A stretch of 63,750 nt of DNA, filler included, from Craspedostauros australis (taxonomy: Eukaryota), in NCBI GenBank assembly GCA_030167865.1. It is 8 parts of 8 records of this genome, joined end to end, with 100 filler letters (N's around TTAATTAATTAA, not from the genome) between each part and the next. Parts side by side here need not be neighbours in the genome. Positions count along the whole stretch, not along the records: positions 1 to 25,844 come from JALAGF010004377.1; 7 more parts are not named here. One strand, written 5' to 3'. Position numbers and translations under genes: made by a program. Position 1 is the stretch's first letter; each line of letters opens with the position of its first letter. The notes under the pieces were generated by a model. The model had not been told where the DNA came from. It worked only from the letters and a program-made list of their open reading frames with translations, and ran no database searches. Positions 20,648 to 62,549 of the stretch are shown one piece after another.

Positions 20648-20902
20648 TGTTGGTGCACTGGCCAATCGTCAGCATCCGTCCGTCGCACGTAATGACCCAA
20701 AGGCGCAAAACGACGCAGAGCCAGAGAAAAACACAACGAACGCAGAAAACAGCCAAACCAAAACCAACACAGACCACTCATAAAATCAAACAAACAGTAT
20801 CCGATCGAATTACACAGCATTGACATCACACAGCATCAGCTCTGGTTCCACCCTTCAGCTTATAGCTGGGTAGGGGACCGACACTGAACTGTTGTATCAA
20901 CA
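20648..20902 (+). repeat. 5' LTR, 255 bp
   Basis: Ends defined by the TSD-flanked copy at 35257-35511; terminal inverted TGTTG/CAACA. Confidence 0.97.
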
Positions 20903-20918
20903 TACTGTTTGTTTGATT
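20903..20918 (+). promoter_or_regulatory. Non-tRNA primer-binding site complementary to LTR positions 20784-20799 (putative self-priming site)
   Basis: TACTGTTTGTTTGATT directly after the LTR is the exact reverse complement of AATCAAACAAACAGTA; no TGG start as required for a tRNA 3' CCA. Confidence 0.8.
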
Positions 20919-20934
20919 CAGCTCTATCACAACG

Positions 20935-23900
20935 ATGAGCACCGACAAGAAGCCGGCAGCGCCAACGAAGCCGAAGGCAGAAGGCGTCGCCAACAACAAC
21001 AACAACAAACCCAACCGTGGACATCGCAACCATCCGTTCGTCAAGCCAGCCAAGTTCGAAGGGGTGTGCCCCGAGCTCAAGGGCTATGTCTTTGACTGTG
21101 CTGCCGTACGTGCCAAGCAGGTGGACGAATTCACAAAGACCATCGAAGCCATCACCAACTATGCTGGAACACAGTACGGACCGGTTGTGAGCATGGCAGT
21201 GGAGAACATGGAAGCACCCTCCATCACAGAGCCTGAGGACTATGCAGAAGGAGCATCTGAGATCGAGAAGGACAAGTGGAAGAGACGCTATGCACTCTAT
21301 ACCACGCGCCTCACCAACGCCGAGACCGACTATCAGAAGATGTACGCGGTCATCTGGGGACAGTGTTCCGACATCATGCGGACACGTATCCAGGAATCCG
21401 ACAACTACACCACAACATCCACCACACGAGACACCGCCGCACTCATCAAGATCATCAAAGGCGTCGTCTTCAACTACCAGACACACGAACAAGGAACAGT
21501 GGCCGCATGCATGATCATGCAGGAGCTTATGGGACTTCGTCAGAAGCACCGACAGACCGTCCAAGACTACTACGAATCGTTTGTCAACCTCGCCGATGTG
21601 AACGACACGGTCGAAACCTCCATCACACACGTGGAATGCATCATTAATGCCATCGCCAAGGAGCGTGGCATCGACAACCCAAACACAGCGCAAAAGAAGG
21701 TGCTCAAGGCCGACGGCAGACAGCGATTCCTTTCTGTACTCTTCATCCTGGGCTCCGACCGCCGCAGGTTTGGTTCCCTCATCGAGGACCTCCACAATGA
21801 ACAGGTCAAAGGCAATGACCAGTATCCCAAGACACTTGTGGCAGCACTCACCATGCTCAGCCACTGGTCGAAGGACCCAAGGAATGTACCGGGCATCAGC
21901 ACACCAAAAGACACAGGCATGGCGTTTGTGAACGCGAACAACCCAGGTGGAAAAGAGGCATGCACTCGATGTGGCCGCACCAACCACACACTGGATCAAT
22001 GTCATGCGAAGTATCACAGTGACGGCACTGTCCTTGTGCACGCTGATGATGGATACAACGATGACGACTTCGTGTTCCTACATGCGCACCTGGATGAACA
22101 CACAAGCCACACACTCAACCAGGCAACCAACATCATCCCAAGGAACTGGATCCTCCTCGACAACCAGTCGACAGTTGATGTCTTCAGCAACGGACGTCTC
22201 CTCAAGGACATCCACACCCTTGAGAACAGTCTCACCATCCACTGCAATGCAGGGACTGCCACCACCAATCAACGCGGCACTCTTCCAGGATACGGGGATG
22301 TCTGGTATCACCCAGACGGGGTCGCCAACATCCTCTCCCTCAGCAAGGTGAAGGGTCGATTCCGTGTCACCTACGACAGCACTGGAACCAACCGCTTCAC
22401 AGTGCACAAACAAGATGGGTCCATGCAATCCTTCCAGGAATCCCCAGGTGGTCTTTTCTACCTTGATACCAGCAGCACCAACAACCTCCACGAAACAACC
22501 ATGGTCAACACAGTAGCTGATAACCGCAATAGCTTCTCGTCTTTTGACTATTCGCAGGCCAAACTGGCCAGGTCCCTACAACAGCGTATTGGTCGCCCCA
22601 CGTCGCGTACTTTCATCAGATATGTTCGCAACGGCATGATCCCTGACTGTCCTATCACCGCCAAGGACATTCGAACTGCTGACCTCATTTTTGGTCCAGA
22701 CGTGGCTTCCATGAAAGGGAAAACAGTGAGACACGTGTCTCCAGCCGTACGAGCGGAGATCGCACAGATTCCTGCGAACATCATGCAGCAATATCGCAAC
22801 GTACAATTGTCAGTCGACATCATGGTTGTCAATGGCATCAAGTTCCTGGTCTCCATCGCCAAGCACATCAAGTTCGGCACAGTCGCAAAACTCGATTCTG
22901 CATCAAACACAGTCCTCACCAAACAATTCCACAACATCATCCAACTCTACAAGCAGCGAGGGTTCCGTGTCACAATCATCATGGCAGACAACCAATTCGA
23001 ATCCCTACGTGGCGAACTGGCCGAGCGAGGTGTTGGAGTGAATGTGACATCGCGGGACGAACACGTACCAGAAGTGGAACGGTACATCCGAACCATCAAG
23101 GAACGCGTGCGATCTACGTATCACGCACTTCCATTCAAACACTACCCGCCCATCCTCATCATCGAGATGGTACATCATGCTGTGTATTGGCTCAACATGT
23201 TCCCTCATCAGAACGGGGTCAGCAAGCGAATGAGCCCATCGGAAATAGTCGTGGGCCGCAAGCTGAATTACAATGCACACTGTCGTCTTGAATTCGGCAG
23301 CTATGTGCAAACGCACGAGCAGCATGACAACACAATGCAGCCACGAACCGTCGGTGCTATCGCAGTCAGGCCGTCAGGAAACGACCAAGGTGGTTATCTC
23401 TTCATCAGTCTGGAGACTGGCATGCGACTACACCGCAGATCGTGGACGGAAGTACCCATGCCCCAATCCGTCATCGACCATGTCCATGGCATGGCGAAAC
23501 GTGCAAAAACGAATCAAACCCTGAAGTTCTCCTATCAGCGCGGTGTGGAGCTGTACCCTGTCCATGATGAAGATGATGATGATGACGACAGTGACAGTGA
23601 CAGCGATAGTGACAGTGAATCCGACAGCGAATCAGAATCAAGCGAGGACACGGACGAAGACAGCCTCGACGACGAGGACGGCGATGATGGGAGCAGCGAC
23701 AGCGAATCGGAGGCATCCAACGGAACCGAATCGGATGGCAGCTCAGATGACAGCGACGGCAATGATGATGATGATGGCGACAGCAATAATGGTGTTGAGG
23801 ATGCAAATGTCCTGCCACCGATCATTGCGGACCTGCCACTAATCATTGATGATGCACCACAACTGGCAGACGAGGAGAATATCGAGGCTGGAAATGGACA

Positions 23901-25844
23901 ACCCGATGCGCATCAGCCGCCAGAACAGACATCAACACACCCCATGACCACGAGACGGGGACCACGCATTGACTACAGCGAACTGCATCACACCGGTCGT
24001 GGAGACACACATGCTACCATCACAATCCTATCCGAAGATGCAAACAATGAAACACACAACCACATTGAAGCATGCACGTTCGTCACTGAACAGATGAACT
24101 GGAAGCAAGGGCTCCGACAATTTCATGAACGCGGCGAAGACGCCATCAGCAAGGAATTGCAGCAGGTCCACGAAATGGAAGGGTTCGAACCCAAACACTG
24201 GCACGAGCTCTCTCATGATGAACGTTGCAAGGCTCTGCGCTACCTGATGTACCTGAAAGAGAAACGCAACGGCGTCATCAAGGGTCGTGGTTGCGCTGAT
24301 GGCAGGAAACAACGACTATACATGACCAAGGAAGAGACCAGCTCTCCCACTGTGTCTCTCCTTGGGCTCATGCTCACTTGCGTCACCGATGCCCATGAGA
24401 ACCGTGACGTTGCAACAGTGGATGTGCCAGGCGCATTTCTGCAAACCAAGTTCGACGACGGAGACATCGTGCACGTGCTGATTGAAGGAAGGATGGCTGA
24501 GCTGCTCGCCAAGGTGGCACCCGAAGTGTACGAAGAATATGTGCACAAGAAGAGGGGACAATCGGCAATATACGTGAAACTCACGCGCGCGCTGTATGGA
24601 ACGTTGAAGGCGGCACTACAGTGGTGGAAGGATCTCACCGCCACCCTTGTTGCTGACGGCTTCACCATCAATCCGTATGACTGGTGTGTGGCCAACAAGT
24701 CAGTGAAAGGGAAACAATGCACCATCGTATGGCATGTTGACGATTTGAAAATCTCACATGTGGACCCATCGGTGGTTGACGATGTAATCAAGATGCTGAA
24801 TGTGGCGTACGGAAAACGAACTCCGCTCACCGTCAAGTGCGGCAAGCAGCATGACTACCTTGGCATGTTGCTTGACTACACACAACCAGGACATGTGAGA
24901 ATCGACATGTCAGAATACATCAGTGGTATTCTTGCAGGAGTGCCAGCAAACATGGGAGGACATGCAGTCACGCCTGCAGCCAACCATCTCTTCGACATCA
25001 ACCACGAAAACCCAAAGGCACTCGACGAAGACACCAAGGACCTCTTCCACCACATCGTTGCCAAACTCCTCTTCCTGAGCAAGCGCGCAAGACCAGATAT
25101 CCAAACTGCTGTGTCCTTCCTCTGTACCAGGGTCAAAAGCCCAGATGAAGACGACTACAAGAAGCTTGCTCGCACGATCAAATACCTACGAGCGACGCAA
25201 GACATGACACTCACCCTTGGTGGATCCAGCCTGGAGGACACACAGTGGTGGGTAGACGGTGCGTTCGGCGTCCACAACGACATGCGGAGCCACACGGGGG
25301 CGCACATGTCCACCGGAGCAGGCGCCATCTACTCCACATCATCCAAGCAAAAGCTCAACACCAAAAGTTCGACAGAAGCGGAGCTTGTCGCTGTCGATGA
25401 TGTGATGCCACAGGTGCTGTGGACAAGGTATTTCCTACAGGAACAGGGGATCAAGACCGAGCCATCCACCCTTCACCAAGACAACCAGAGCGCAATGCTG
25501 CTGGAAAACAACGGGCGCAAGTCAAGCGGAAAAAGGACCAGACACATCAGCATGCGATACTTCTTCGTTCACGACCGCATCAGCAGAAATGAGATCAGAG
25601 TCAAATACTGCCCTACCGATGATATGATCGGCGACTTCTTCACGAAGCCGCTCCAGGGATCCAAATTCAGGGCATTCAGGGACGCCATCCTAAATCGAAA
25701 CGCATATGATGCCAACAGGCCAAAGACATACAAGGAAGCTCTATTGGCATCACAGGAGTGTGTTGGTGCACTGGCCAATCGTCAGCATCCGTCCGTCGCA
25801 CGTAATGACCCAAAGGCGCAAAACGACGCAGAGCCAGAGAAAAA
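20935..25844 (+). CDS. Copia gag-pol polyprotein; runs into the 3' LTR, true stop lost in the gap
   Basis: Zn knuckle CTRCGRTNHTLDQC, protease LLDNQST, integrase D..D..E (VDIM / ADNQF / PEVER), RT WHVDD, RNase H VDGAF / TEAEL / QDNQSA / DFFTKP; no stops. Confidence 0.96.
25761..25844 (+). repeat. 3' LTR (first 84 bp, then gap)
   Basis: Matches 20648-20731; preceded by CACAGGAGTG in the PPT position. Confidence 0.95.
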
Positions 25845-25944
25845 NNNNNNNNNNNNNNNNNNNNNNNNNNNNNNNNNNNNNNNNNNNNTTAATTAATTAA
25901 NNNNNNNNNNNNNNNNNNNNNNNNNNNNNNNNNNNNNNNNNNNN
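25845..25944. other. Assembly gap with six-frame stop linker; others at 29633, 31888, 34632, 36644, 38396 and 62550, plus a plain N run at 62834
   Basis: Each is 100 bp of N with a central TTAATTAATTAA. Confidence 0.98.
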
Positions 25945-28990: not shown

Positions 28991-29732
28991 AAGAGAGTGT
29001 TGGCAAGTTCCGCTCACGGTAACCTACGATCGTGGAAGATGGTGTTGGTTGATAGTCGTCTGTTTGCTATTTCACTACTTGGCTACTCCAATCCTCTTGG
29101 TGCACACCTGTTCTCTTGCCCGATGCTCTTGGTGGTTCAATCTGTTTCGTAGATTCAGTCTCCGACTATGAGTCGGTACGCGAGATCCTCTCTCGCTCCT
29201 CTCTGTATTCTCTCTCTCTCTCTCTCTCTCAGTATCGTGTACTTGCGCTACACGATACTCCGTGTTCGATGCATGCTCCGCATTCGACACTCCGTTCATT
29301 CAGTACTGGTTCCTACTCCATGAGTACTCACCATTTGAAGTTCACCTTCTGTATCCATGATCTTCATGGGTCATCGCATCTTCGCCTCCTGCTCTGACTT
29401 GGAGACAGATGTCGACGTGGTGACATGTTGACATCCTGTCGATGTCAGTAGGCGTCCTTCTGCTCTCCAGATGTCACGTTCCATTGGTGATGTTACAGTC
29501 TGTCAGATGATATCATCATCTGAGGTTTAGTTGGGAAGTACCTCGAGCTTCTCTTGGTACCATTGATGGATGGACAGACGATCTTCCAATTCTCTCAGAA
29601 ATCGTTATTTGCAAATTTCCTCCAGAAATCTTNNNNNNNNNNNNNNNNNNNNNNNNNNNNNNNNNNNNNNNNNNNNTTAATTAATTAANNNNNNNNNNNN
29701 NNNNNNNNNNNNNNNNNNNNNNNNNNNNNNNN

Positions 29733-31599: not shown

Positions 31600-31987
31600 A
31601 GTTGGGACAGACTAGCTCCGGGACTGACTCGGGACCTGACTGTCCATTCCGCGTACACAGTATTTGGTACCCAAGACCGATACTGTGATGAAAGGCTACC
31701 ACACACACGATGTGTAGTTGAACTGCAATCCATGCGTTGCTCGCCCTCCAGCTCATGCACCCCTGCCATCTGTCCATCTCGTCATTCTGTTGAACATGCA
31801 TCTATCTTGAAGCATATCCATGTGAATGGATCAGCTGCTGCTCTATGGGTGACGATACTGGAAGACTGTATGTGTGCAGGATCACCANNNNNNNNNNNNN
31901 NNNNNNNNNNNNNNNNNNNNNNNNNNNNNNNTTAATTAATTAANNNNNNNNNNNNNNNNNNNNNNNNNNNNNNNNNNNNNNNNNNNN

Positions 31988-33839: not shown

Positions 33840-34731
33840 TCTACACATGCTTCCTATTGATTCGTCAATGCATGCTGAATGTTTTCTTTGGATTGGTTGA
33901 TTGTCTCTGGACGCAGTCTGTAGTCTGTGTGATGCTCATGATTGATATTGTATTGGTGTTGGGTGCATGCTTTGCTGGATACCCTCAGTTGGATGCAGTA
34001 TTATCTGCTCTCTGCTGCTTACGACATGTGCTGCAGACTTCTGTGTTGTGTGCCATGCTTTCTGCTCATTGATTGCCTCCTGCCAGATGCTGTGCTATTG
34101 GCCATCAGCCAAATTTATGACTCTCAAAGAGTATTGAGATATTCATTCCACTGCCTCAATGCTCAGCCATCTGTAAGGTTCCAAATGCACGAATTCGCTG
34201 GTCATCGTCATTGTCATTGTGCTGTCAATGTTGTTGAGGATTTTGTTGTCCTGATGCATGGCGTTCGCAGCTCGTTGTGCGTCGCTGACTGCTCCTCTTT
34301 GCCTGTGCTTGGTGCTGTCATGTGGGATGCAAACTTGGCCCATGGTGGGAGTGCAATGAGATGCAGCTCTAGATGCGTTATTTCCCTTCAACCATACTCG
34401 TATTCCTCATGCGTTGGCATAGATTGTTGACAATGGTTGCTGCGCCTGCTGATGAGTCTGTGGAAGGCATTAGCGGAGTACCTTGGTGGATGTCTCCGCT
34501 GGTGTATTCATGTGATGGTGGAGTCCCATGGTCATCGACAATGCTGTTGATACCAAACTACGCAGTGTCCTTCTACTCAGCGCGCATTGAGCTTTTCGTC
34601 GATGGGCACATTGGCGTCGTTGGTGGTGATANNNNNNNNNNNNNNNNNNNNNNNNNNNNNNNNNNNNNNNNNNNNTTAATTAATTAANNNNNNNNNNNNN
34701 NNNNNNNNNNNNNNNNNNNNNNNNNNNNNNN

Positions 34732-36643
34732 ATGATATCGACAACGTTGCGCGCTAAATCGATCTCATCAGCTACAAGCTGCTCGTCCCACTCCCAATTC
34801 AGACCGTGGAGATTCAGTGTAAGGAGCTTGCGACGGTGCAGCCCTTCAAGCGCTTGCTTTGTGTAGAAGACGTTTCCTTTTGTTTTGTCGTAAAGTATCC
34901 TCGCCAGTGGGGATGCTGTGAACGTGTCCAGGTCAAGCGAAGCTGTCAGGAGCTCAATGGTCTGCGCAAGGGTAAGATCATCCAGAGGAATGTCATGGAT
35001 GATCTTTCCGGATTCATTCCACTGAGAGATGGCGTTTGTGAGACGGTGGTGTGGGTCACTGTGGACTTCGTTGGAGCGATACGATCCGATGATGAGAAAG
35101 TTACGGATGGATCGATCGAGGAGGATCTCGGTGATGAGCGTGAGAGATCGGTCGTCGATCCACTGGAGATCTACGCATATGCATGTACATGTGCACACGC
35201 AGTGATTAAGGTCATTGTTGAAAAGAGCGAAACAATAAAGATGCGAGAGATTCATGTGTTGATACAACAGTTCAGTGTCGGTCCCCTACCCAGCTATAAG
35301 CTGAAGGGTGGAACCAGAGCTGATGCTGTGTGATGTCAATGCTGTGTAATTCGATCGGATACTGTTTGTTTGATTTTATGAGTGGTCTGTGTTGGTTTTG
35401 GTTTGGCTGTTTTCTGCGTTCGTTGTGTTTTTCTCTGGCTCTGCGTCGTTTTGCGCCTTTGGGTCATTACGTGCGACGGACGGATGCTGACGATTGGCCA
35501 GTGCACCAACATCATGAGCGACAGGGGAGCAGTGAAAGTTGAAGCACGGTGAGTTCCGCCAATCTTCGATGGAATCGCAATCTCAGTTATGACTAACGCG
35601 TGATCCCAAACAAATATGGCAGCGCTTACCATCAAGGTATATCACGAGCGGACGACTGACGGAGCAGATTGCGTGAAGGATTTTCTTGATTGCGTAGACG
35701 AGTTGAGCCCATTCTCTATCTCGCGGGCCTGTACTTGCAGCCAGTACGTCGTCAAAGGTGCTGGCTGACCTCATGGACATATCAGCAAATGAACCTTTCC
35801 TCGCAATTGATCTCGCGTCTGCACCATTCTCCATCATACCATCCATGCTTTGGTTTTGTAGCCAGCGTTCAGTCGCATCCATGCTGCCTTCGTTGTCCTG
35901 CACGAATAGCGAAGATAGCTCAGGAATTGCCTTGCACAAGAGTTCCAAGCGCTTTGAATCCACTCTGCGACGGATCATCGTCATGACGCGCTGATATTCC
36001 CCGACGTCCTCGGACGCAGAGATCCGACCAAAGAAGTTCGAGAGTGCATCGGCAATTCCTGAAAGATTGCCGCCTGCGTTGTACTGATCATATTTCCCCT
36101 TTCCGAAGTGGCATGGAGGAGCCTGTCGTCTTCGCTTCTTCGTTGCCGTGGCACCCCCCTGTTGACCGCAGCATGAATCGGTTGCGGTTCCCTTCATGTG
36201 CGCCGATCCGTCTTTCCGTGATGCAGCATGCTCGTCCTCGTCCTCGTTGAGACCGTCCAAGAAGCGGTCCACCAACGCCGATTTGCCCGTGCCAGAGTAG
36301 CCGTGAATGAGAACAACCTGAGCTACCCGATTGCTGGCGCCATCCTGCTCTGAGGCTTTCGATGGCTTGCGGCACATTCGCTCGTAGATGGAGTTCAACC
36401 GTTCCAACTCATCTTCGCGTCCAATGAAGGCATCGAAACGGAATTTCTTCTCATCAGTCAAGTGGTTGTCATCAGCCCTTCGGTGGCCACCATCACTGCC
36501 GTCGTCGTCAACAGACCCATCGTCCCCATCGTTCTTGTGAAACTGGCTTCCATGCGCGATCTTATCCGTCGTCGCACTATCAGATTCCTTGGTGACGCGT
36601 GGTTCCACGTCTTCGCCCTCGTCCTCCTGCTTGCGTGGATAGA
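34732..36643 (-). CDS. Partial COG3899-like AAA/STAND ATPase gene, allele A (LTR in intron); exons 36643-35630 and 35170-34732, both ends in gaps
   Basis: FIGREDELERL, Walker A HGYSGTGKS, GKYDQ; spliced PLVIYLD-DLQWID (Walker B) over GT(35629)..AG(35171); GSYRSNEV, KTKGNVFY. Confidence 0.88.
35257..35511 (-). mobile_element. Solo (or assembly-collapsed) LTR of the Copia at 20648, with 5-bp TSD TCATG
   Basis: Reverse complement of 20648-20902; TCATG at 35252-35256 and 35512-35516; single TCATG at 37264-37268 in the empty allele. Confidence 0.96.
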
Positions 36644-36743
36644 NNNNNNNNNNNNNNNNNNNNNNNNNNNNNNNNNNNNNNNNNNNNTTAATTAATTAAN
36701 NNNNNNNNNNNNNNNNNNNNNNNNNNNNNNNNNNNNNNNNNNN

Positions 36744-38395: not shown

Positions 38396-38495
38396 NNNNN
38401 NNNNNNNNNNNNNNNNNNNNNNNNNNNNNNNNNNNNNNNTTAATTAATTAANNNNNNNNNNNNNNNNNNNNNNNNNNNNNNNNNNNNNNNNNNNN

Positions 38496-39993: not shown

Positions 39994-41670
39994 ATGACGA
40001 GCATCTCCGCATCCACGAAGCACAGGATCGGCAAGAAGCCCGCGAAGGTGGGCATCGGCAAATCCGGCAGCAAGGCGGGAGCCAAGTCCAAGGCCTCCGG
40101 CGGAAAGCGCGGTGAGAGCGCCGCGTTGAAGCCATCGGCGCTGGCGACTGCCAAGGCCGTGGCGGACCTCAAGGCTTTGGACAATGCCGCGCGTCGCAAC
40201 AAGATCAAGGATCTGTTCTGCGCCGCGATTGGAGAGGAGGTCGTTGTCGACAAGAGCAAGCCTCGCACGGCCAGCACGACGCGAAGCCGCGGTATGGCCG
40301 CTGCCGATGTCGCCGTGGCTTGCAAGGAGCTGGGCATTTCGTTCGTGCTGCGGGAGTGCGGTCTGCTCGATGAGATGCAGCGCACGCTGTTTCCGGAAGG
40401 CATCGAGGCGATGTTCGCGCGCACCAGCATTTCCGGCGGATTGAAGCCCAGCACATCGGCCGTGAGTCTCACCAGCCTCGACGAGACCACGATCACCAGC
40501 GCCGGATCGATGGGCACGGACAGCAAGCGCGGCAAGGCAACGCCTGCCAATGCCAGAGAAGGTGCCTTGCTCATCATCCGGGCGCTGTGCGAGAGGCTCG
40601 GCCAGAAGGTCGAACCGTTCGTTGTGGGCGCCTTCCTCGCGGCATCTCTGGACGAGTGTGGCAGCAACTCCAGCAGCGTGCGTGATGCGGCGGAGGACAC
40701 ATCGCGAACGCTCATCAAAACGGCGAGCCCGTGGGCCTTTGCCTGCCTCATCGCCCCGCTCATCATGCAGTCGTTGAAATCCAACGAATGGCGCGTCAAG
40801 TTCAATGCCCTCGATCGGTTGGCCCAGTGCGCGGAGACCGCCCCCGCGCAGGTCTGCAAAATGCTCCCCACGTTGATCCCCGCCGTGACGGATCAGGTTT
40901 GGGATACGAAGCAGCAGGTCACCAAGTCGGCCACGTCCGCTCTGCTCAAGATTTGCAAGACCAACACCAACCCGGACGTCGCGCCTGCCGTCCCGGCAGT
41001 CGTCAAGGCCATCTCGAAGCCGTCGGATACCGTCAAGGCCCTCGACGAGCTCATGGGAACGACCTTCGTCGTCAGCGTCGACGCCGCCACGCTGTCCATC
41101 CTGTGCCCCGTCCTCTCGCGCGCGCTCAAGGAAAAGCTGGCCATCCACAAGCGCGCCGCCTGCATCGTCATTTCCAATATGAGCCGTCTCGTCAGCGCGC
41201 CCGAAGATGTCGCACCGTTCGGTCCCCTGCTCGTGCCGGAATTGAAGAAGGTCGCCACGAACGTCCAGTTCGAGGAGATCCGTGACGAGGCCCTCAAGGC
41301 GCTCAAGAACCTCACGAAGGCTCTGGGTGACGCCTTCGAGGAGTCGCAGGAAGATAAGGCGCACGAGGCGGAGCAGGAACGCCTGCGCGTGGAAGACGAG
41401 CAGAAGAGGATACAGGACGAACGCGACGCGCAGGCCAAGCGCGATGCCGAACAGCAGAAGAAGGAAGATGAGGAGCGCAAACGTTTCAAGGAGGCCATGG
41501 ATGCGCAGCGCGAATTGGATCGCATCGAAGCCGACAAGATCAAGAAGGCCAAGGAAGAGGAGGAAAAAAAGAAGGAAGCCGCCAAGCGCAGCACGAAGGG
41601 TGGAACTGGCAAGTGTCAAGGTTGCGGGCTCAAAAAGTGCAAGAAGACCTGCTTATTTTTTAAGGGATGA
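39994..41670 (+). CDS. eEF3/New1/GCN1-like HEAT-repeat protein lacking ABC domains; coiled coil and C-terminal Cys4 motif
   Basis: WRVKFNAL, WDTKQQV, TTFVVSVDAATLSILCPVLSRAL, IVISNMSRLV match the eEF3 HEAT domain; tail CQGCGLKKCKKTC. Confidence 0.8.
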   Translation: MTSISASTKHRIGKKPAKVGIGKSGSKAGAKSKASGGKRGESAALKPSALATAKAVADLKALDNAARRNKIKDLFCAAIGEEVVVDKSKPRTASTTRSRGMAAADVAVACKELGISFVLRECGLLDEMQRTLFPEGIEAMFARTSISGGLKPSTSAVSLTSLDETTITSAGSMGTDSKRGKATPANAREGALLIIRALCERLGQKVEPFVVGAFLAASLDECGSNSSSVRDAAEDTSRTLIKTASPWAFACLIAPLIMQSLKSNEWRVKFNALDRLAQCAETAPAQVCKMLPTLIPAVTDQVWDTKQQVTKSATSALLKICKTNTNPDVAPAVPAVVKAISKPSDTVKALDELMGTTFVVSVDAATLSILCPVLSRALKEKLAIHKRAACIVISNMSRLVSAPEDVAPFGPLLVPELKKVATNVQFEEIRDEALKALKNLTKALGDAFEESQEDKAHEAEQERLRVEDEQKRIQDERDAQAKRDAEQQKKEDEERKRFKEAMDAQRELDRIEADKIKKAKEEEEKKKEAAKRSTKGGTGKCQGCGLKKCKKTCLFFKG

Positions 41671-41962: not shown

Positions 41963-43549
41963 TCATTTCGCCTTGCGCTCCCGCCTTTTTTGAATGGAGA
42001 ATTTGGACCGGAAGGAGTATCCCACCTTATCGGTCGCGATGTCGTCCAGCACCTCCTCCCAATCGCCCTTGGCATCGCGCTTCAGAAATCGTGCATTGTG
42101 CTTGTTTTTGAGCGACGTGACGATGGATTGGCAGAAGGTGCGCTTGTCGCCGTGGGCACACGATCGATACGCGTCGGCGTTGGTATCGATGACCTGCAGC
42201 AGCTTCTGGTTGCCGCTGAAGGTTTGGTAGGGGCGTCCGCGGCCCAGGAGGATGTCGTTGTATTTGGGGAAGGGGATTGCGGCAGTCTGCTTTTGTTGGT
42301 CGCAAGCACCTGCGCATTGCTCGCGTTCATCTTGTTCGGTCTGTGCCAAGTACTTGAGGAGCAGCCGGTTGTCCGGATTGCCGTCGTCCTGGATTGGCAG
42401 CACGTCGGACGGGATGCCGTAGCCTTGCAGGGTGTAGAGGCTTTCGACCTGCGAACCTAGATGGACGCGATGTCGCAATCTGGCCTCCTTGGGCAGCTTC
42501 ATCATGAGCAAATTGATGAAAGGTTTGGCCTGTGGCAGGTTGTAGCAGATGTGGACGGCGGGAAGTCGAATCGGCAGGGATTGACCCAAGAGGGAGCACT
42601 TGGTGTAAAAGAGCTCCTGCAACGTGATGGTGATGGACGTGACGCCGGTGAGGTAGAGGATCATGACCATGCCCTTGCGCTGCGCTTCGGCGTTGTTGCG
42701 GAATGCCGATTCCATGATGAACCAGGAACCCCGCATGGAGCTGCGCAGGCTGTTCTGCCGGTGGTACTGCCCGTACGAAAAGAAGATGATGCGTCCCGCC
42801 CTGTCGGTCACGGATGGCAGGCACTGCAGGGAACCACCGTGGATGTGGTGCCGATCGGAGTCGGTGAGATCCTGCACCCCGATGTGCTTCACGAGCCGGT
42901 CCTGTCCGAAGAGATCGAGCTTGGTCGAATAGTACATGACCATGCGCCGAGCTGCGTAGACGGGATCGTAATTCTCCGCGCGCAGGAAGGACATGCGGAA
43001 TGCCTGGTCGTTGACGTACTTGGGCGACATGAAGAGCGCCCTTTCGTAGGCCGGTTTGGACTTGATCGCAGACACGTGCTCGTCCATCTGGTGCAGCAGG
43101 CGGCGGTTGTGTTCCTCCGTTTCGTCGATGAGGTGGGGCATGCCGTGGATCTCGTCGTTGCCGATGTTGCGCTCTTCGACCGTGAGATCGTTGAGCTCCT
43201 TCGCGAGCACGCGGTCCGTCTCCGTGATCGTGGCTTTGTGCCTGCGAGGATTGTCGTCCGCCTCGGTCCAGCACGAGCCGTGCTTCATGCCCTGCGACGG
43301 AATCTTCGATGCTGCTGCTGCATCTTTCAATGTGACGGATTTGGGCAGGCACGAGGCGCTGGCCGCAGACGAAGGCACGGGTAAACAGCCGGCGCTGCAG
43401 CAAGCGGGAGATGACGAGGGCAGCAATGGCAGCACTTCGCCATGTTGGTGCGGATCGCGGCCGCGGGATTCCGCCGTGCGAAGTTCGTTGTCACCAGGGT
43501 CTTCCAAGGCTTGGCTTGCATCCAACGAAAGCAGATTGTGGCGATTCAT
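41963..43549 (-). CDS. Diatom-type DUF6824 domain protein with CRAL-TRIO-like region
   Basis: LAKELNDLTVEER, FRMSFLRAENYDP, DRAGR, C-terminal DILLGRG...GN...RFLK...KVGYSFR; start taken at MNRHN. Confidence 0.8.
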   Translation of the reverse strand: MNRHNLLSLDASQALEDPGDNELRTAESRGRDPHQHGEVLPLLPSSSPACCSAGCLPVPSSAASASCLPKSVTLKDAAAASKIPSQGMKHGSCWTEADDNPRRHKATITETDRVLAKELNDLTVEERNIGNDEIHGMPHLIDETEEHNRRLLHQMDEHVSAIKSKPAYERALFMSPKYVNDQAFRMSFLRAENYDPVYAARRMVMYYSTKLDLFGQDRLVKHIGVQDLTDSDRHHIHGGSLQCLPSVTDRAGRIIFFSYGQYHRQNSLRSSMRGSWFIMESAFRNNAEAQRKGMVMILYLTGVTSITITLQELFYTKCSLLGQSLPIRLPAVHICYNLPQAKPFINLLMMKLPKEARLRHRVHLGSQVESLYTLQGYGIPSDVLPIQDDGNPDNRLLLKYLAQTEQDEREQCAGACDQQKQTAAIPFPKYNDILLGRGRPYQTFSGNQKLLQVIDTNADAYRSCAHGDKRTFCQSIVTSLKNKHNARFLKRDAKGDWEEVLDDIATDKVGYSFRSKFSIQKRRERKAK

Positions 43550-43837
43550 GGATGTGTATGGGTTGGTGTGGGATGAGTAGTCATATGTGTGTTTGTTAGA
43601 AGTGTTATGATGAACTGCAATTGGTTTTATGAAGTGTGGAATTGCCTCTTTGTGTGCCAGCTGACCGCAAGGGAAGCCGGTGGTGACCAAACGGAACTCC
43701 AAAGAAGCCGCGTTGTCGTTGTTGGTTGTGGAGAAACGCTTCAGTTCGCGATTCAATTCAATCACGAATCCGATCCACTTCTGGTCGCACCGTATCAACA
43801 GTTTCACGATTCTTGGCGCCCACTATTGTTCTCCACC

Positions 43838-46800
43838 TCAGATGCCGCCATCGTCATCATCCCCATCATCACCACCGCCATTCCTCTTGGGCTGCTGCTG
43901 TCCCACGACGGAATCCTGCTGGTAGTACATTTCCAGCACCTGATCGCTGCTTGTGGCCTGTTCCGGATCCTTGTCGTCGCGCACGCGTTCGAACCTTGGG
44001 AATCGCAGGCCGATGCCGCGTCCTGGATCCGTCTTGCCCACTGCGCCCTTGTGCAATGATGATTTGGACAGGTCGGCGGCCTTGATCTCCCACACTTGGC
44101 ACGCGTCGAACCAGACATCGCACGCCAAACCGTCAGCGACGTTGTACTGCGACGACTTTGTGTCAATCTTGCGCTGACTCAAGGCTTCCGACAGCGTCTT
44201 CAGATCTTCATCGGAGAATCCGGTTCCGATCTTGCAAACGGACTGGAATTCCTCGGACTCGACGTCGTAGCAGGCGAGGAGGTAGGCGCCGTAAACGCCC
44301 GTGCGCTTGCCTCGTCCGAAGTACGCTCCCAATGGCACAAGATCGAACGAATCGCCCAATCCGTCCAGATAGTCCTTCTTCAGCTTCAGCCAATTCAGCG
44401 ATCGCCGAGATGGTTCGTAGACGTCGTCCAACGTCTTCACCATCAGACCTTCGCACTGTCCCTTCACTGCCTGGTCCAAAAAGTCTTGCAGTTGCGTCGT
44501 ATCCAGCGCATCGTCGGCCTCTACTGTTGATGCTGCTGGTGTTGGTGTTGTGCCATCCGTGGTGGCGTCGTCATCGACATCGTCGTCTGCATTCTCCACC
44601 TTCGGTTCATCCTGCTTCGAGCCAAAGTCCATGCTCGTCGCGAATTGGAATTTGTGCATCACGGGGGCGAAATGCAGCTGCATCAAACGACGGCGTTCGT
44701 GCAGCGGGTGGCCGAGCAACGATTCGCCATTGAGGAACATCAGATCGAACGCCTGCACGATGATCTTCACCTTGGCCGTTGTCGCGGATTCCTCGGAGCG
44801 CTTGCGCGTCGAAAGGACCTGGAATGGCACCAGCTGCTGCGTTTCGGCATTGTACGCCACCACTTCGGCATCCAGCACGAATGAAGTTGTTGTAACAGAT
44901 TCAGCCCCCACGTCGCTCTTGACTTCCTGCCTCTGCTTCTGTGCTGCATCCGCTGCCTCTTGCACCAGCAGCGGCACTTCTGGGTACTTGCCAGTCGTTT
45001 CCAGCAGGTTGCGCGAGAACACCTTGGTCTTGCCATCCAGCAGATGGATCTGCGCTCGTTCGCCGTCGTACTTGTACTCGCACGTGAATGGGCACCCCTC
45101 CAGGCGTTTCAGCACCTCCTGGATGGACCTGGTGGGCTTGGCAAGCATGGGCACGACTGGGATGCCTGGCTGGAAGGAGCAGGCCTGCGGCAAGTACCGC
45201 AATGGCGTGCTCAAGGCAGCATCCAGCAGAGCATCGTAGCTGGGAACCTGGCTGTACACCTGCTTAACGATAGCAACAGCCGCCTCCAACCGCTTCTCGA
45301 TCGGTTGCGATACGTCATCGTACTGCTGGATGATGGCGGATGGCTTGGAAGCGGAAGACGAAGCGGAGTCTTCGCTGTTTTTATTGCTGTTGGTCTTCGT
45401 TTTCTCCTTGAATATGTCAGCCACCTTTTCGTCACCATCGTCGTCCTCTTCCATGTCACTACTGCTGTCCCCATACAGCTGCTCTGCTTTTGCGACATTC
45501 ACCGTGTTGGGAACAGTGAAGGACATGGTGTGCGCAAGCGAAATGAGCACAGTGGATGCCGCCAAACCGATTCTCAACTTTCCCTGCAATCCACGGATGA
45601 TGTACTTGGTCTCGGAACCCTTGGTGCACATGACGAGAAGCTTCTTGATGGCGTCAACCTTGAGCTTCTGGGAGGACGATCCTGTGATCTTGGCGATGGC
45701 ACGGAAGACGGAGAGGACGTGATTGCAAGTCAACGGCTTTGGTTTGAAACCGAAGGACAGGGTGGACTGCTTGGATTTGTAGCCCATGGCGACGGTTCCC
45801 AAATCTCCATCGAGCTCGTACTTTTGCTTGACCTGTGATGGTTTGCTGCCGTAGGCCTCCGCGATGGCCTTGATGAGGATGGAATCACCGATGCCCAATT
45901 CGACGCATTCGTAGGCTGGCGCCACCGTGTTGCTGGCAAGGTAGAGGATGGTGTACAGATCGTGCTTGGCCTGTTCGGCTTGCTTTTGCTTCGACATCTT
46001 CTTTTTGATGGTGCCATTTCCCTTTGCGCTTGTTGTGTCCTTGTTGCCAATGTTGTTAGACAGCACGACGCGTCTCATGAGATCCGTGAGCAGGGCCTGG
46101 ATGTCCAGCCGACCCGTGATGGCCTCGATCTTATCCAGCGTTTGCACGAGAGTGGAATAACGTAGCGGTGACGCTGTGTTGGCCTGATTCTGTTCGATAT
46201 CCTCCAGGATGGCCTTGTTGGATGGAACCTTGGCTTCTCTGGCCCACTTCCTGGCCTGCTTCAACAGGCGCTCCTGCAATTTCTCCTCCTTCGTTTTTGG
46301 CTTTGCGTTATCATCGCCCATCTTTTCGTCCTTGTCGCTATCGCTGTCATTGGTGTTGCCGTCGCGAGTAGTTCCTCCTTGTGCTTCTGCTTCTGCTTCA
46401 TCGACATCCACGTCCATGGCCTTGCCCTTGGCATCATCGTCTTCTTTTTTCACCTTGGTCTTCGCCGTTGCTTTTGCCGCTACCTTGGATTTGGTGTTGG
46501 AGTCTGCCGTTTCTTCTTTATCATCACGGTTGGCACGACGATGGCGTTTGTGAGTGTTGGTCCTTGTCTTTTTGTTTTTCGACTTGGCGATTGCATTTTC
46601 ACCATCGCTGCCATCATCGCAGTACTCGTCATCAATCTTGTCGTCATCATCGTCGTTGCTGTTGCCATCGTCCTTGTAATCAGCGTCATCATCATCATCA
46701 CCGTCGTCGTCGTTGTTGTTGTTGTTGTTGTCATCATCATCATCATCATCGTCATCCATGATGGCCAACTTACGTCTCTTGATGGCAAAGGATGTCAACT

Positions 46801-47017
46801 TGTTGTCATTGTTGTTGTTGGTTCCACCCTCGCTGTTGTTGTTGTCGCTATCCTCCAATTGCCTCTTGGCCGAGGATGCCTCATTGGTGTCCGAAGAAGT
46901 GTCTTCCTGCGTCTCCTTCGCTTTCTTGGGAGCGAACATGGACGTGATGGTCGTCTGTTTGGTCCCCTTGACCTTGAAGAACGAGTTCAACGTCGATTGC
47001 TTCGCTGTCTTGCCCAT
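43838..47017 (-). CDS. LIG1: DNA ligase I
   Basis: N-terminal PIP box QSTLNSFF, active site EYKYDGER, EGLMVK, WLKLKKDYL, LRFPRF. Confidence 0.97.
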   Translation of the reverse strand: MGKTAKQSTLNSFFKVKGTKQTTITSMFAPKKAKETQEDTSSDTNEASSAKRQLEDSDNNNSEGGTNNNNDNKLTSFAIKRRKLAIMDDDDDDDDDNNNNNNDDDGDDDDDADYKDDGNSNDDDDDKIDDEYCDDGSDGENAIAKSKNKKTRTNTHKRHRRANRDDKEETADSNTKSKVAAKATAKTKVKKEDDDAKGKAMDVDVDEAEAEAQGGTTRDGNTNDSDSDKDEKMGDDNAKPKTKEEKLQERLLKQARKWAREAKVPSNKAILEDIEQNQANTASPLRYSTLVQTLDKIEAITGRLDIQALLTDLMRRVVLSNNIGNKDTTSAKGNGTIKKKMSKQKQAEQAKHDLYTILYLASNTVAPAYECVELGIGDSILIKAIAEAYGSKPSQVKQKYELDGDLGTVAMGYKSKQSTLSFGFKPKPLTCNHVLSVFRAIAKITGSSSQKLKVDAIKKLLVMCTKGSETKYIIRGLQGKLRIGLAASTVLISLAHTMSFTVPNTVNVAKAEQLYGDSSSDMEEDDDGDEKVADIFKEKTKTNSNKNSEDSASSSASKPSAIIQQYDDVSQPIEKRLEAAVAIVKQVYSQVPSYDALLDAALSTPLRYLPQACSFQPGIPVVPMLAKPTRSIQEVLKRLEGCPFTCEYKYDGERAQIHLLDGKTKVFSRNLLETTGKYPEVPLLVQEAADAAQKQRQEVKSDVGAESVTTTSFVLDAEVVAYNAETQQLVPFQVLSTRKRSEESATTAKVKIIVQAFDLMFLNGESLLGHPLHERRRLMQLHFAPVMHKFQFATSMDFGSKQDEPKVENADDDVDDDATTDGTTPTPAASTVEADDALDTTQLQDFLDQAVKGQCEGLMVKTLDDVYEPSRRSLNWLKLKKDYLDGLGDSFDLVPLGAYFGRGKRTGVYGAYLLACYDVESEEFQSVCKIGTGFSDEDLKTLSEALSQRKIDTKSSQYNVADGLACDVWFDACQVWEIKAADLSKSSLHKGAVGKTDPGRGIGLRFPRFERVRDDKDPEQATSSDQVLEMYYQQDSVVGQQQPKRNGGGDDGDDDDGGI

Positions 47018-47732
47018 TGTGTTGAACGTTGTTGGTGTGTCTGTATTGGTATTGAGGATTGTGTACTCCGTTGTCACGATGTTGTGTGTGCGGCACAATG
47101 TAATGTGTCTGCAAGAAATGCGATATCCCCTTCAGATTGCTTAGTCGATCGTGTGAACGGATGAAGAGACCTGATTTGAAAAGGATTTGTGGAAACAAAG
47201 ATGAAGGGGAAGAGAGGGAGAGGAAGACGCAAGAGAGGAACACAACAACAAATGCTGCCCGCAACACAAATTGAACCGTTGTGGCCGCCGTTCCTCCACC
47301 GTTGTTGGCAGCAAGTTCCTTTGTTCGATTTTGTTGGCTGCAAAGTTTTCATTTTTCAAATTCATGGTAGGAAACCTACGTACACGATGTACGATTCATT
47401 CGATCAACATCACACGAAACAAGAGATACAGATTTCTGTCTGCCCGTTGCTTCACCCAACTACAACGCAAACAACACCAACCAAATCACGATTTCTCAAC
47501 AATCACCATTCTCAATGCCAATCGGTTGTTCGACCAAGTGCGGTTTGATGTGAGTTACGTGCCTTGAACGAGTGAGTATTTGCCGAGAGGCAGTTGTGAT
47601 TGAGGAGTATTCTATAATATAATATTCTACAATCTATGATACCAAAAGGTCGTACCTATCCAACTGTTTGCACCATTGCTCGTGCAGTGCCAACCAAGGA
47701 CTCTTCGAACCACTCCTAGTTAATCATCTACC

Positions 47733-56840: not shown

Positions 56841-59800
56841 TTACAGCTCATCGCTACCCTCAGCAGCAGGTGCATCATCAGCGTCTTCCTCATCTTCCAC
56901 ATCGTCGGCAAAGTCCGTCACGTAGTTAATGACGCGACCAACTCCGCGAGGGAAGTCGTCACGAAGCTCCTTGGCCCAACCATCCTTGAGCAATGACAGT
57001 ATCATCTCCAGTAGCTTGTCGGCAGTCGCCTTCTCCTGATCCAAGGAGAAGTTGCTCACGGTGATGTGGCTTCGTCCGTCCCACACCGCTACGATGTTGC
57101 CACCCTCGTACTCCGCGACGGCCATGGAACCGTCACCCATGAAGGTGTACCACTTCGATGAAAGGACCTCGCGATCCAGATCTTCGACGACATCTAGAAC
57201 GACATTCATCAGGTCGGGAACCCTGCCCGCCTTCTTTTCGTTGCGCCACAGCTGATACACGGTCTGGCGTCCGATCGGGATTTGCATCTGGAATTGCTCC
57301 TGGCCCGGCATACTGTCGTAGTCGGTGTCAGCGAACTCCCTCGGCTTGTACTCGTCCTTGTCCTGGTAGTAGAACGCGCCGCTGCTGACTTCCTCCATCC
57401 AAAACTCAATATCTGAGAACTTGGCGTTCAGCTCCTCGGCGGATTTGGACATCTGCGCCGGAGACGCTTCATTGTCGACGGTCAGGATGGAGAACTCGGC
57501 GGTCACGGTGTCTTCGCCCTTGGCAAGGAACTCGAAGCGGGTCAACGGATCGACCTCGATGAACCGACGGGTGCGTTCGATGGCGTTGTGACGCCACCTT
57601 GCGTTGTCACGGTTGGACAAGACGGCCATCATGAGCTTGACGGATTCCTTCTGGAAGGATGTGCGTCGGTTGGCCCAGAAACTGGCGAAGATTTGGCCCA
57701 TAACGTACGAAGCATTGTCATCGAGGATCGCTGCAGTCACAGTCAAACCGGATTCCATGAGATCTTCTCGCAGGTCATCCACAAGCTTGGTGCGGCATTC
57801 GTGTCGGTCCTTTTCATCAGCATCTTCCTCAGCAAGATCAGGACATTCGTACAGCTTCGTCACCTTCTCGAAGTGTCCGGTCTCCTCGGTCAATTTCGCC
57901 GACTTGCAGTCCTCCGATGCGAGTCCGCAGAAGATCAAGGCGACGCCACCCTTGGACAGCAGATTGCTGAAGGTGACTGCGTACAGCTCCTGCCACAGTT
58001 CGCTTGTCATGACCTCGGACAGCTTCGGCTGTACCGCGTTCTTTCCCTCGTCATTTGTGGCGTTGCAGTTGCGGCTGTGCCAGGCGAGATCAGGACCAAT
58101 CAGCATGTGATCGCGATCCCACGAGTGGCTGCCGTACATTCCAGACACGATGATGCGGTACGATGATACGGTCCCCTTCTTGATGTCGTTGCCAGCACCG
58201 AGGGCCTTGACGATGAGACTGCGCGTGGAGTCCATGAGATCGAAGCGTCCCCACAGATGGATGTCCAGAGCAACGTAGTTGGCCTCTGGCCAGCGCCTGA
58301 TGACGACGTACCCTTCGGCCAGAAGGATGATGGTCTTGGACTTTGCATCGTTGCTGCCGTGAGAGGCGTGCACACTGAAGCCTTGGTCATCCAAGACGCG
58401 CATGATCAGCGACGTGGCTTGGTCCAACGGCACAGCGACATTCTCAATGTCCACGATCATCAGCATGCCCTCGCTCTTTCCGTCGCGGATGCCTTGGGTT
58501 CTGATTTGATCTTCGATGGCGGCGTCCAGACGCGTGCACCCGCCATCCTTGACAGGGTCATTTGCCCTGAAGTCGTGCACCAGGTAGTGCGAGTTGGGGT
58601 AGTCCTTGAGGTCCGGGAGGAGGATGGTTTCCACGCCGTGATCGGTCAACGGCTGCGTGAACAAGTTGCGCTCGTTGCTACCAATGATCATGGCCTGGCC
58701 GCAGATCATGGGGCAGTCGTGGAAGTGAAACTCCATGCTGTAGTCCATGACGTTGGACATCCTGGGGAAGTAGCGTTCGTTCTTGACGAGGATGCCATCA
58801 GGTTTCACCAGCAGGGACATGGCCTCGAAGATATCGAGGTGGTCGCTGACGGTGAGGCTGGTGGCGGTCTCGGACAGGTCGATGATGACGAGGTCGAACG
58901 ACGAGGTGTACTCGCGTGGTAGGAGGAGGAGAGACTTTCTGGCGTCGCCGAACCACCATTCGACGCGGTCGTCGTCGAAGTGCGGTTGGGTGTGGAACCA
59001 CTTGAAGGAGGTTCGGACGACCTGCTGATCGAGCTCCAACCCGACCACGAGCTCGACGTCGGGATACTTCAAGACTTCGTGCAGGATCATCGAGTCCCCG
59101 CCGCCGATGAAGGCAACGCGCTTGACTTGGTCGAGGAACCGAGCCGGGTAGTGAACGCCGTACTCGTGATAGTGCGGTCTGTAGTTGTCGCAGATCTGGA
59201 CCGTGTCATCCAGATCGAGGCAGAGGCAGCCATCCGGGATGTCGCCGCGCACGCGTCTCGAGTAGTTGATTGTCTGGTATTCTGATTGGATGGATTCGAC
59301 TTCATCAAACTCCTTGAAGCCCATCATCTTGGAGATGTCGCAGGAGTTGTACCTGTAGAGGACGTCCGCGAGCTTGCCATCCAGCGACATGTACAGATCT
59401 CTGGATGTGCACTCGTCGTCCACGACGTTCGTGCAGGACAGCGGGTCGTGGTCTGGCATGGAAACCCTCGCGTTTGAGAGCGCGATGATGGCAGAGTCGA
59501 CGAACTTGCTGACGATGTCCCATTCGATTTCCGGGACGAGCTGGGCTGGTCCCTCTCGCTTTTGCCGACCGCCGGTCTTGGCGTACGTCTCGCGTCCCAA
59601 CCGAAGGAGGTTGGACCGCAAGACAGTGAGTCGTCGCAGCTGCTTCAAGATGTAGGGCTGGTTCATTTTGTCGGACTGCCAGGTGAGTTTGTACTTGAGC
59701 GCGCCACCGTTGACGTCCGTGGATTCTTGAGTCTCGTTGGCGTCCATGCCAAAGTCCTCCATCTCTTCGGGAGTCAGCGGAGGAACGACGTCGATCCGAA

Positions 59801-60968
59801 ACTTCATCTTTGGATCTGAGAAATACCAAATCTGCGGGTAATCCTCGACGAATCCGTAGTCACGCAGGATTTCTGTGCCACGCATAGCAGATGACGTGGG
59901 GCGGTGTGAACCGTGTGTTGGTGGGGAATGGGCACGCAGATGTGTGGAGAGCATATTATGTGAGCAAAAGAGCGGGGGCATGATCGAACGCACGCATTTG
60001 TGGGCATGTCTGAACTGAACGCGCATACTCGCACGCAGACAGGGTTGGTTGCAGCACGATCACAACGAAGAGTCGCAGTCGCAATCAACTTCATGTTCGT
60101 GTCCATGCTCACCTGCAACACCGTAAATGTCCTGACGTCCTCCACAAGTCTCGCACATATTGAGCGTCATGTAGAGCTGCTCGCCAGCCTTGATGTCTCG
60201 CGTTGCGTGCACGGAATAGGCCCTGCCATCCGCTGAGGTGTCGATGTTGGTGTAGTCCCCATTGCGGTGGTTGTAGATATCCGCGAAGGGCACCAGCAGG
60301 TGGTTGTCACCTCGCGACACCAGGATGGCCGCTGCCAACCGACCGATGTCCGTGTCCTCGCCCTTGCAGTCCTTAAGGTAGTCTTCGTCGATCCATTCGA
60401 TGGGCTCCATGGGTGGCAGCCCATCAAAGACGCCGGCTTCGCCGGACAGGACCTCCATGAGCAGGTCCTTGCCCTGGGGAGACCAGATGCTGGGAATCGC
60501 CAGCTCCTGCGGGCTGAATTCCTCCAGCGCCGCGAGGAAGTCGAGGTAGGGCTTGTGCGGCGAGTTGTCGGGATCCTTGAAGGCCTCCACCAGCTTCTCC
60601 ACGCTCTCGCAAGGCAGGACCGTGTCCGGCGCAGGCCCCTCGGTGGGTCCATCCAGTTCTTCGAAGTAGGCGAGGATGTTCGGCACCGGGACGCTGGCCA
60701 GCATCTCGCCCTTGGGGATGTCCTTGGTGGCGAAGACGCCCAGCTTGGACTGCTTCAGCGGCTCCTGGATGATCTGCACGTTCTGCAGCTCGATGTTGAC
60801 GAAGCCTCGCTTGGTGTTGCTGATCCAGTGGATCAGGCCGTCCACGGCGGTCATCATGGCATCCGCGGCGGCGTCGCTGGCCTGCGCCGATGCGACCGCC
60901 CCGTTGCCGGCCAGCAGGGCCTGCAGCAGCAGCAGGGACACCATTCCCATGGTCCGCAAGCCGCCCAT
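56841..60968 (-). CDS. Signal peptide + SET domain + spermidine-synthase-like aminopropyltransferase + degenerate AdoMetDC-like domains, ending SDEL; exons 60968-60113 and 59872-56841 (1295 aa)
   Basis: SET: GVFATKDIPKGE, PFADIYNH, ATRDIKAGEQL. GT(60112)..AG(59873) intron gives YGVAEILRDYGFVE. Aminopropyltransferase: FIGGGDS, LELDQ, IIDLSE. AdoMetDC-like: EGYVVIRRWPEANYVALDI. Confidence 0.9.
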
Positions 60969-62126: not shown

Positions 62127-62549
62127 CCCTTAACGACCCGGGTCCAACGCGTTCATTATATCCTTTTTTTTTCGGCCCGTGTTAAATTTTGAACGAGGTT
62201 TCCCTACCAGGAGCTACGACAGAAAGCTTTCTTTTTTAATCTAGTTCGGAACCATTCTTCTTATTCACACGGTTTTACTGGTAAAAAATTTCGTCAGCCC
62301 TGATCCTGACCATGGTATGTAGCCCAGTGTTGCTTGCAGATGTAGACATCACAGATGTTGCACATCCTTCTCACTCTTTTCGGTTTCACCCCTGCCTTTC
62401 NGTCTTTCTTTGCTTTCGCCTTCAAGAACGCACAGTATGTGCAGGTCCGCTGGCACCCTTCTCTCACGATGAGCTCCTTGTGGTCGCGATACTCTCCTGT
62501 CAGTCTCTTCAAACTCAGCCTTGGTGACTTTCTGCTCATTCTCGATGCT
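62127..62549 (-). mobile_element. 3' end of a piggyBac-like DNA transposon (Cys-rich C-terminal domain and terminus)
   Basis: ORF end CTYC...CNICDVYICKQHWATYH (stop at 62294), AT-rich subterminal region, terminus TTAT|CCCTT at 62123-62131. Confidence 0.6.

Follow-up and report, generated by a model that had tools for sequence, protein, structure and literature searches.

A Copia-type retrotransposon of Craspedostauros australis that probably primes reverse transcription with a piece of its own RNA

The element and its surroundings

The window analysed here, a 63,750-nt stretch of Craspedostauros australis DNA, contains seven joins of the form N44-TTAATTAATTAA-N44 (25845-25944, 29633-29732, 31888-31987, 34632-34731, 36644-36743, 38396-38495, and 62550-62649), each with a six-frame stop linker at its centre. 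These joins reveal that the window was stitched from separate contigs, so that the flanking parts are not necessarily contiguous. The other N's are a single one at 62401 and a run of 66 at 62834-62899. Ordinary eukaryotic host genes, which code for a DUF6824 protein, an ATP-dependent DNA ligase, an EF3-like HEAT protein, and a spermidine-synthase/AdoMet-decarboxylase-like protein, lie at 41963-43807 (-), 43838-47098 (-), 39994-41670 (+), and 56841-60026 (-), and the surroundings of the element are gene-rich DNA.

The element itself is a full-length LTR retrotransposon that begins with a 255-bp 5′ LTR (20648-20902, plus strand; TGTTGG...ATCAACA). The same sequence recurs on the minus strand, at 100% identity over exactly 255 bp, as a solo LTR (35511..35257) flanked by CATGA duplications at 35516..35512 and 35256..35252 (whole feature 35252-35516), and the first 84 bp of it survive, also at 100% identity, as the 3′ LTR of the full copy (25761-25844, plus strand), after which one of the N44-TTAATTAATTAA-N44 joins follows. 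The target-site duplication was read at the solo LTR, the 3′ LTR of the full copy running into the assembly gap. Identity of the solo LTR over 255 bp, with CATGA on each side, fixes the LTR limits at 20648-20902 beyond the TG/CA rule, and the 255-bp length assumed in an earlier note on this DNA was thus correct. Both the TG...CA termini and the 5-bp duplication at the solo LTR are those of Ty1/copia elements. The complete identity of the three LTR copies in the window indicates very recent activity, and on these features the element is classed as a young, recently active Ty1/copia LTR retrotransposon. A candidate polypurine tract, ACAGGAGTG (25752-25760, plus strand), putative in function, abuts the 3′ LTR within the coding region, and its junction with TGTTGG was also found in L035, one of the related loci described below.

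A single gag-pol ORF (protein P0001; 20935-25844, plus strand) of 1636 or more residues enters the 3′ LTR and encodes a CCHC knuckle and a Copia-type reverse transcriptase (RT). The latter matched RVT_2 (PF07727) at residues 1095-1334 (41.8 bits, cut-off 31.6; E = 1.3e-10), again as in Ty1/copia, and the precomputed domains of the relatives were likewise PF07727, while the knuckle scored under the Pfam cut-off. Integrase, protease, and RNase H gave no Pfam match in the polyprotein even at E up to 5, and a profile search of PDB sequences with the presumed protease, integrase, and RNase H parts returned weak zinc-knuckle matches only. Between knuckle and RT, an alignment of 26 polyproteins uncovered ~700 conserved residues with invariant D628, D685, and E715; C-terminal to the RT there are only ~300 residues. 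Since the RT sits near the C-terminus, we infer the Copia gene order gag-PR-IN-RT-RH. Membership in the Tf1/sushi clade of Ty3/gypsy chromoviruses, in which a Gypsy-type RT is followed by the integrase, was ruled out by the RVT_2 assignment and this short C-terminal part; the element would resemble Tf1 in its mode of working without belonging to its clade.

Up to the 3′ LTR, the polyprotein ORF is uninterrupted by a stop. Continued on the 5′ LTR as a proxy (20648-20783), it crosses all of the putative U3 and ends, immediately ahead of the 5′ arm described in the next section, at a TAA in LTR positions 134-136 (20781-83 in the 5′ LTR). With its only stop there, U3 would be coding and almost no 3′ UTR would lie outside R.

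Complementary arms at the LTR end

At the primer-binding-site position of the window element lies ATACTGTTTGTTTGATT (20902-20918, plus strand; the 3′ arm), whose first base is the last LTR base. It is a perfect 17-nt complement of AATCAAACAAACAGTAT (20784-20800, plus strand; the 5′ arm), the proposed self-primer at the start of R, and the two are separated by a loop of 101 nt. This complementarity, from which the earlier note had started, was recovered both by direct reading and by pattern search. The duplex geometry described there also held, in that 20902 closes the LTR and the arm inside the LTR has its 3′ end (20800) directed into U5, and so did the absence of TGG from the first bases after the LTR. 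No tRNA gene was found in the window. Pairing is not extendable, the next bases being A/C on the outer side and C/C on the inner side. When up to two mismatches were allowed, the search of the window returned the two arm sites and a 5′ arm copy in the solo LTR (35359-35375, minus strand), which has no primer-binding-site partner, and nothing else; moreover, none of 100 dinucleotide shuffles of the window matched the 17-mer. The chance of such a 17-mer anywhere in the 255-nt LTR, put by the earlier note at about 1e-8 under uniform composition and higher given the A/C bias, was recomputed as 1.4e-8 and, with the A/C-rich composition of the LTR, as 1.6e-7.

Among 8000 candidates scored, the RT-RH part of the polyprotein identified 1676 relatives at E <= 1e-20, the best being 66% identical. 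One named relative is a Cyclotella cryptica gene model, and among relatives with names the nearest come from diatoms. The closest ESM-Atlas clusters are eukaryotic; Bacillariophyta is their commonest taxon, although the phylum is known for only 3-4 members per cluster. The alignment of 26 polyproteins (A1) served to fetch 77 metagenome loci with best-segment identities of 35-61% to the window protein. The clade appears to be deep and diatom-borne. Many of the loci are contigs of ~5-6 kb with both LTRs collapsed into one and are often circularly permuted, for which reason the LTR ends of many of them were deduced from a conserved CAAC(A) motif; its position at the LTR end is supported by the solo LTR of the window and by loci L008 and L035.

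All 77 loci, together with the window element (340,484 nt in total), were scanned blindly for perfect inverted complements, 12 nt or longer, whose loop measured 30-250 nt. There were 35 matches, 31 of which (in 29 loci and the window) had the 3′ arm directly after CAAC(A/T) or, in L016, after CTAACA. Four matches fell elsewhere, two of them in an AGCT-rich, palindromic low-complexity tract of L054 (2079-2379). The gag N-terminus was located by tblastn of 26 N-termini in 35 loci, 30 of which were evaluable in that they comprised the LTR-gag junction and enough upstream sequence; L028, L030, L042, L047, and L074, cut off less than ~140 nt upstream, were left out. Every evaluable locus carried a complement of 14-17 nt, perfect in 29 and with a single mismatch in one (L051, 14 nt). 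In 27 of the 30 the perfect pair lay within the contig, and in L040 and L066 the two perfectly matching arms lay at opposite contig ends, the 5′ arm being found there in the 3′ LTR. The 3′ arm of evaluable loci always started at the LTR end or 1 nt after it. L017 and L045, two loci without a gag match, have the pair as well. Related elements lacking complementarity between LTR and primer-binding site, which the earlier note had named as evidence against its proposal, were looked for among the 30 evaluable loci and none was found.

In L035, two LTR copies occur in one contig (10700-11010 and 15950-16260) and are 95% identical. The downstream copy has one arm substitution (TTCTAACTGCAATGT) and GCCA for GTCA before the arm, while the site matches the upstream copy; the change looks like decay in an old or non-cognate LTR.

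None of the 77 loci ends in poly(A) and none of the contigs starts at an arm, so that no locus is readable as a full transcript. The L028 contig starts just after the expected end of its 5′ arm; contig ends are not readable as RNA ends. Among sequencing runs, none recorded as RNA was seen to contain the element. One run of contigs (X1), a small share of which is of conjectural kind, covered pieces of the LTR at 100% identity and, less closely, internal pieces of a relative. One X1 contig starts at 20801, the base after the 5′ arm, and runs past the LTR end into unrelated sequence, by which it derives from another LTR copy. As X1 contigs cannot show a transcription start, this contig end is a coincidence to which we attach no interpretation.

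Twenty-four distinct perfect arm sequences, from 23 related lineages and the window, were available for comparison: seven of 14 nt, ten of 15 nt, five of 16 nt, and two of 17 nt. They are essentially unrelated between lineages, as exemplified by TTATTTATTGAATA (L002), TACTCTCCTTTAAA (L016), CTCTTTTTACGAAAT (L025 group), TAACACTGTTTAAAT (L054), and CAATCTTTTAATTTGT (L075). L014 and L015 differ by one compensated position, changed in each arm, and L035 and L062 by two adjacent ones in each arm; in L032 and L054, the U5 regions can be aligned but the arms are wholly different. A structure-blind MAFFT alignment (A2) of 19 of the 24 distinct R-U5-PBS regions lined up the TCA and CAACA anchors and contained only five invariant columns, namely the A of the TCA motif and the AACA of the LTR end. 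Because arm lengths differ, the arms do not fall into one register in A2, and covariation was therefore assessed with shuffles and swapped partners. In 1000 dinucleotide shuffles of 25 upstream regions, the longest complement averaged ~8 nt and reached at most 12. Coding sequence from 33 loci, cut into 241 windows of 412 nt, gave a maximum of 11 nt. Swapping partners between lineages left complements of 10 nt or less in 546 of 552 pairings, and the six exceptions were all inside the closely related trio L010/L014/L015.

These controls bear on the trivial reading of a chance match, low-complexity sequence, or an assembly artefact, which might be prompted by the A/T-richness of the arms and by the many collapsed metagenome contigs. 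Complements of at least 14 nt occurred in 0/1000 shuffles, 0/241 coding windows, and 0/546 unrelated swapped partners, and the same anatomy is present in the genomic copy of the window and in contigs from many separate records. This reading is effectively refuted by the controls and we give it practically no credence. Covariation of the two segments across related families, which the earlier note had put forward as a check, is thus borne out by 30 paired loci out of 30, 24 distinct sequences, and compensated changes; the pairing is, as judged from these comparisons, kept by compensatory change among relatives.

The arm pairs are discrete, sharply bounded blocks of Watson-Crick pairs only. The bases flanking them do not pair at the inner end in any of the 24 cases, and at the outer end in 23, the remaining one being a G-U. 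Such unpaired flanks are more in keeping with a templated primer/site pair than with a generic RNA helix. The 3′ arm is followed by C in 16 of the 24 cases, by A in seven, and by G in one, and this base (position 20919 in the window) never pairs with the one before the 5′ arm. In L008, L009, L024, L032, L035, L052, L054, L062, and L075, the sequence directly 3′ of the 5′ arm has a semi-conserved motif, YTRG(TT), frequently as CTGGTT or TTGGTT, that provides the 5′ side of a predicted small hairpin; the window element has CCGATCG instead. The motif coincides with the presumed cleavage site.

Most Copia elements use tRNA-Met or a half tRNA as primer (PMC6317226), and a host tRNA, half-tRNA, or other small RNA could likewise act here, with the LTR complement being incidental. 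We hold this to be very improbable: the site differs almost completely among the 24 arm pairs, is A/T-rich, has no TGG just after the LTR in any of the 24, and always matches its own LTR, whereas a shared host primer would conserve it. In addition, only 1-9 nt separate the 3′ arm from the gag ATG in L059, L024, and L010. A variable, A/T-rich site with no space for a second one argues against tRNA priming, and strongly suggests that the site would not be tRNA-complementary.

Predicted RNA start, fold, and route of priming

Phaeodactylum promoters have a proposed initiator-like consensus, TCAH(+1)W, with the start at the base after TCA (PMC4686930). Among the 24 distinct cases, the 5′ arm is preceded by TCA in 15 and by CCA in two, and it begins with the A of TCA in three more. 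TCA directly before the arm, in agreement with this diatom initiator, suggests that the 5′ arm probably lies at the RNA 5′ end, as in Tf1. The window is the least tidy case, since its arm does not directly follow TCA. Two TCAH(+1)W matches mark its predicted start region at the U3/R border (20778-20790, plus strand), TCATA at 20778-82 (+1 = 20781) and TCAAA at 20786-90 (+1 = 20789). Starting at 20781, three or four unpaired bases would precede the arm; a start at 20789, for which TCAAA lies inside the arm, would leave only 12 of the 17 paired bases in the 5′ end of the transcript.

Folding of 20780-20940 predicted, in both MFE and centroid structures, that the 17-bp duplex closes a structured R-U5 region with a long U5 stem-loop (20830-20895, plus strand) enclosed by the arms (z = -5.65; 0/200 shuffles as stable). 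MFE folds of all 21 sources folded kept the full arm duplex, and most of them also showed two hairpins, a small one following the 5′ arm and a long one just before CAAC(A). Given the A/T-richness of the arms, the duplexes would be only moderately stable.

From this anatomy we consider it likely that the clade initiates its minus-strand DNA from a fragment of its own RNA, in the manner of Tf1. Transcription from the initiator-like TCA in the LTR would place the first 14-17 bases (20784-20800 in the window) as the 5′ arm; the RNA would fold back over the structured R-U5, and the arm would pair with the sequence that starts from the last LTR base (20902-20918). If the analogy with Tf1 holds, the RNase H of the element would then cleave the duplex at its inner end, leaving a free 3′ OH at 20800 from which synthesis would proceed into U5. 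In reverse transcription, plus-strand strong-stop DNA copies the primer. On this textbook scheme, the primer-binding site would be rewritten from the arm in each cycle, and such re-templating would explain why the pairs are perfect yet drift freely between lineages. The core of the earlier note, namely the lack of a tRNA site together with a Tf1-type self-primer derived from the LTR, gains support from the cognate complement found at the same place in 30 of 30 loci.

The arm that primes might nonetheless come from elsewhere than the 5′ end of the same molecule. If a copy in the 3′ LTR part of the RNA, or of a co-packaged second RNA, paired with the site and were cut, self-priming would occur in trans. 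The arm, being in the LTR, would lie near both RNA ends if it is in R and at the 3′ end only if transcription starts downstream of it, and the cis and trans routes are inseparable from sequence. The TCA initiator-like motif directly before the arm in most lineages and the structured R-U5, predicted to join the arms within one molecule in all 21 folds, favour the 5′-end cis model over trans priming, which we regard as unlikely.

To a conserved RNA structure with some other role (packaging, dimerisation, control of gag translation, or 5′-end protection), with priming by something unrecognised, we assign a similarly small probability. Covariation shows that the pairing is selected and not what it is for, and the fungal Copia elements GalEa are likewise without a classical site and have a conserved hairpin of unknown role (PMC5445492). 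Against a purely structural role, the 3′ arm is always at the LTR end or 1 nt beyond, precisely where the 3′ end of a primer must sit, and no other candidate site fits, given the narrow spacing between arm and gag in some lineages. The strictly Watson-Crick arms, with mismatched neighbours and no G-U extension, would also be unusual for a helix that serves folding only and are what is expected if one arm is copied from the other.

Beyond cis self-priming as such, we tentatively envisage a broader scenario that is possible, if rather less likely than otherwise. The whole deep diatom Copia clade, with polyprotein identities to the window element down to ~35%, would prime with the capped 5′ end of its RNA, and each lineage would carry a private, drifting primer/site 'barcode'; the mechanism would have arisen independently of Tf1/sushi and of the plant TAR lineage, and the elements would no longer depend on host tRNAs or be exposed to tRNA-fragment defences that target the site. 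Re-copying of the site from the primer in every cycle would generate such a barcode and explain the Watson-Crick-only, sharp-edged, lineage-specific pairs. Reverse transcriptases may copy a C opposite the cap G at the end of a primer, and the C that follows the site in most lineages (16/24) may be such a base.

Significance and comparison with known systems

Self-priming is experimentally established for Tf1-type Gypsy elements only and predicted for one plant Copia lineage; the present clade, apparently diatom-wide, would add a second one in Copia. With 24 different primer/site pairs at one fixed position, it provides an unusually clean natural experiment, in which the repeated origin of self-priming in Copia, the rewriting of the site from the primer, and the escape from defences against the tRNA site once tRNA priming is left become testable. 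Dependence on tRNA is reported to expose elements to 3′-tRNA fragments (PMC7472051). LTR-element annotation pipelines that seek tRNA sites will mis-score these diatom elements, which are abundant and have been linked to stress responses (PMC2806351). Full-text literature searches returned no report of self-priming in diatom elements. In a term search of the founding CoDi paper (PMC2806351), tRNA, priming, PPT, and 'transcription start' had no mention and the sole 'PBS' was a wash buffer.

Among Copia elements without a classical site, fungal GalEa elements resemble the present one in that such a site is missing at the expected place. They possess a 'Conserved Hairpin Site', a local 9-bp palindromic hairpin, for which the authors found no LTR-derived complement (PMC5445492), whereas the complement to the LTR is the defining feature of our clade. 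The half-tRNA-primed lineages Osser, Bryco, and Bianca likewise belong to Copia and have no TGG site complementary to a tRNA 3′ end (PMC6317226). Their site, however, is conserved and matches internal tRNA-Met or tRNA-Ile, in contrast to the hypervariable site found here, which matches the LTR of each element.

Tf1 and Tf2 of Schizosaccharomyces pombe, of the Tf1/sushi clade, share the geometry of the present element. Tf1 has no tRNA site, and an 11-nt block at its RNA start is complementary to the site just after the 5′ LTR; U5 RNA structure brings both parts together, and RNase H makes the primer (PMC7175516). For the present element, the predictions include a U5 hairpin and, where the arm starts, an initiator-like motif. 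The two differ in that our clade has a Copia RVT_2 RT and arms of 14-17 nt, while Tf1 is a Ty3/gypsy element with an 11-nt block, and in that self-priming of Tf1 was demonstrated experimentally and is predicted here from sequence. RNase H cleavage of an RNA:RNA duplex has been shown for Tf1, a Ty3/gypsy element, a Copia enzyme not being among the cases in the portion of that source cited here (PMC7175516).

The closest parallel within Copia is found in land plants. The rice families Houba and Osr-1 have been proposed to self-prime, and the same was predicted for the whole TAR lineage of plants, to which they belong (PMC6317226), so that the statement of the earlier note that Ty1/Copia elements normally use whole or half tRNAs was incomplete. 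That work recognised a self-primer by complementarity of 10 bp or more between the 5′ LTR and a region beginning 0-5 bp after it (PMC6317226); by this measure the window element has 17 nt, 29 of the 30 evaluable relatives have 14-17 nt, and one more has such a complement with a mismatch. TAR elements are likewise Copia with a 5′ LTR region complementary to the sequence 0-5 bp after the LTR, and they differ in their hosts, land plants in one case and diatom-like organisms in the other. As self-priming had already been predicted for TAR, the elements described here would represent a new lineage, apparently clade-wide in diatom-type Copia, of a known mechanism.
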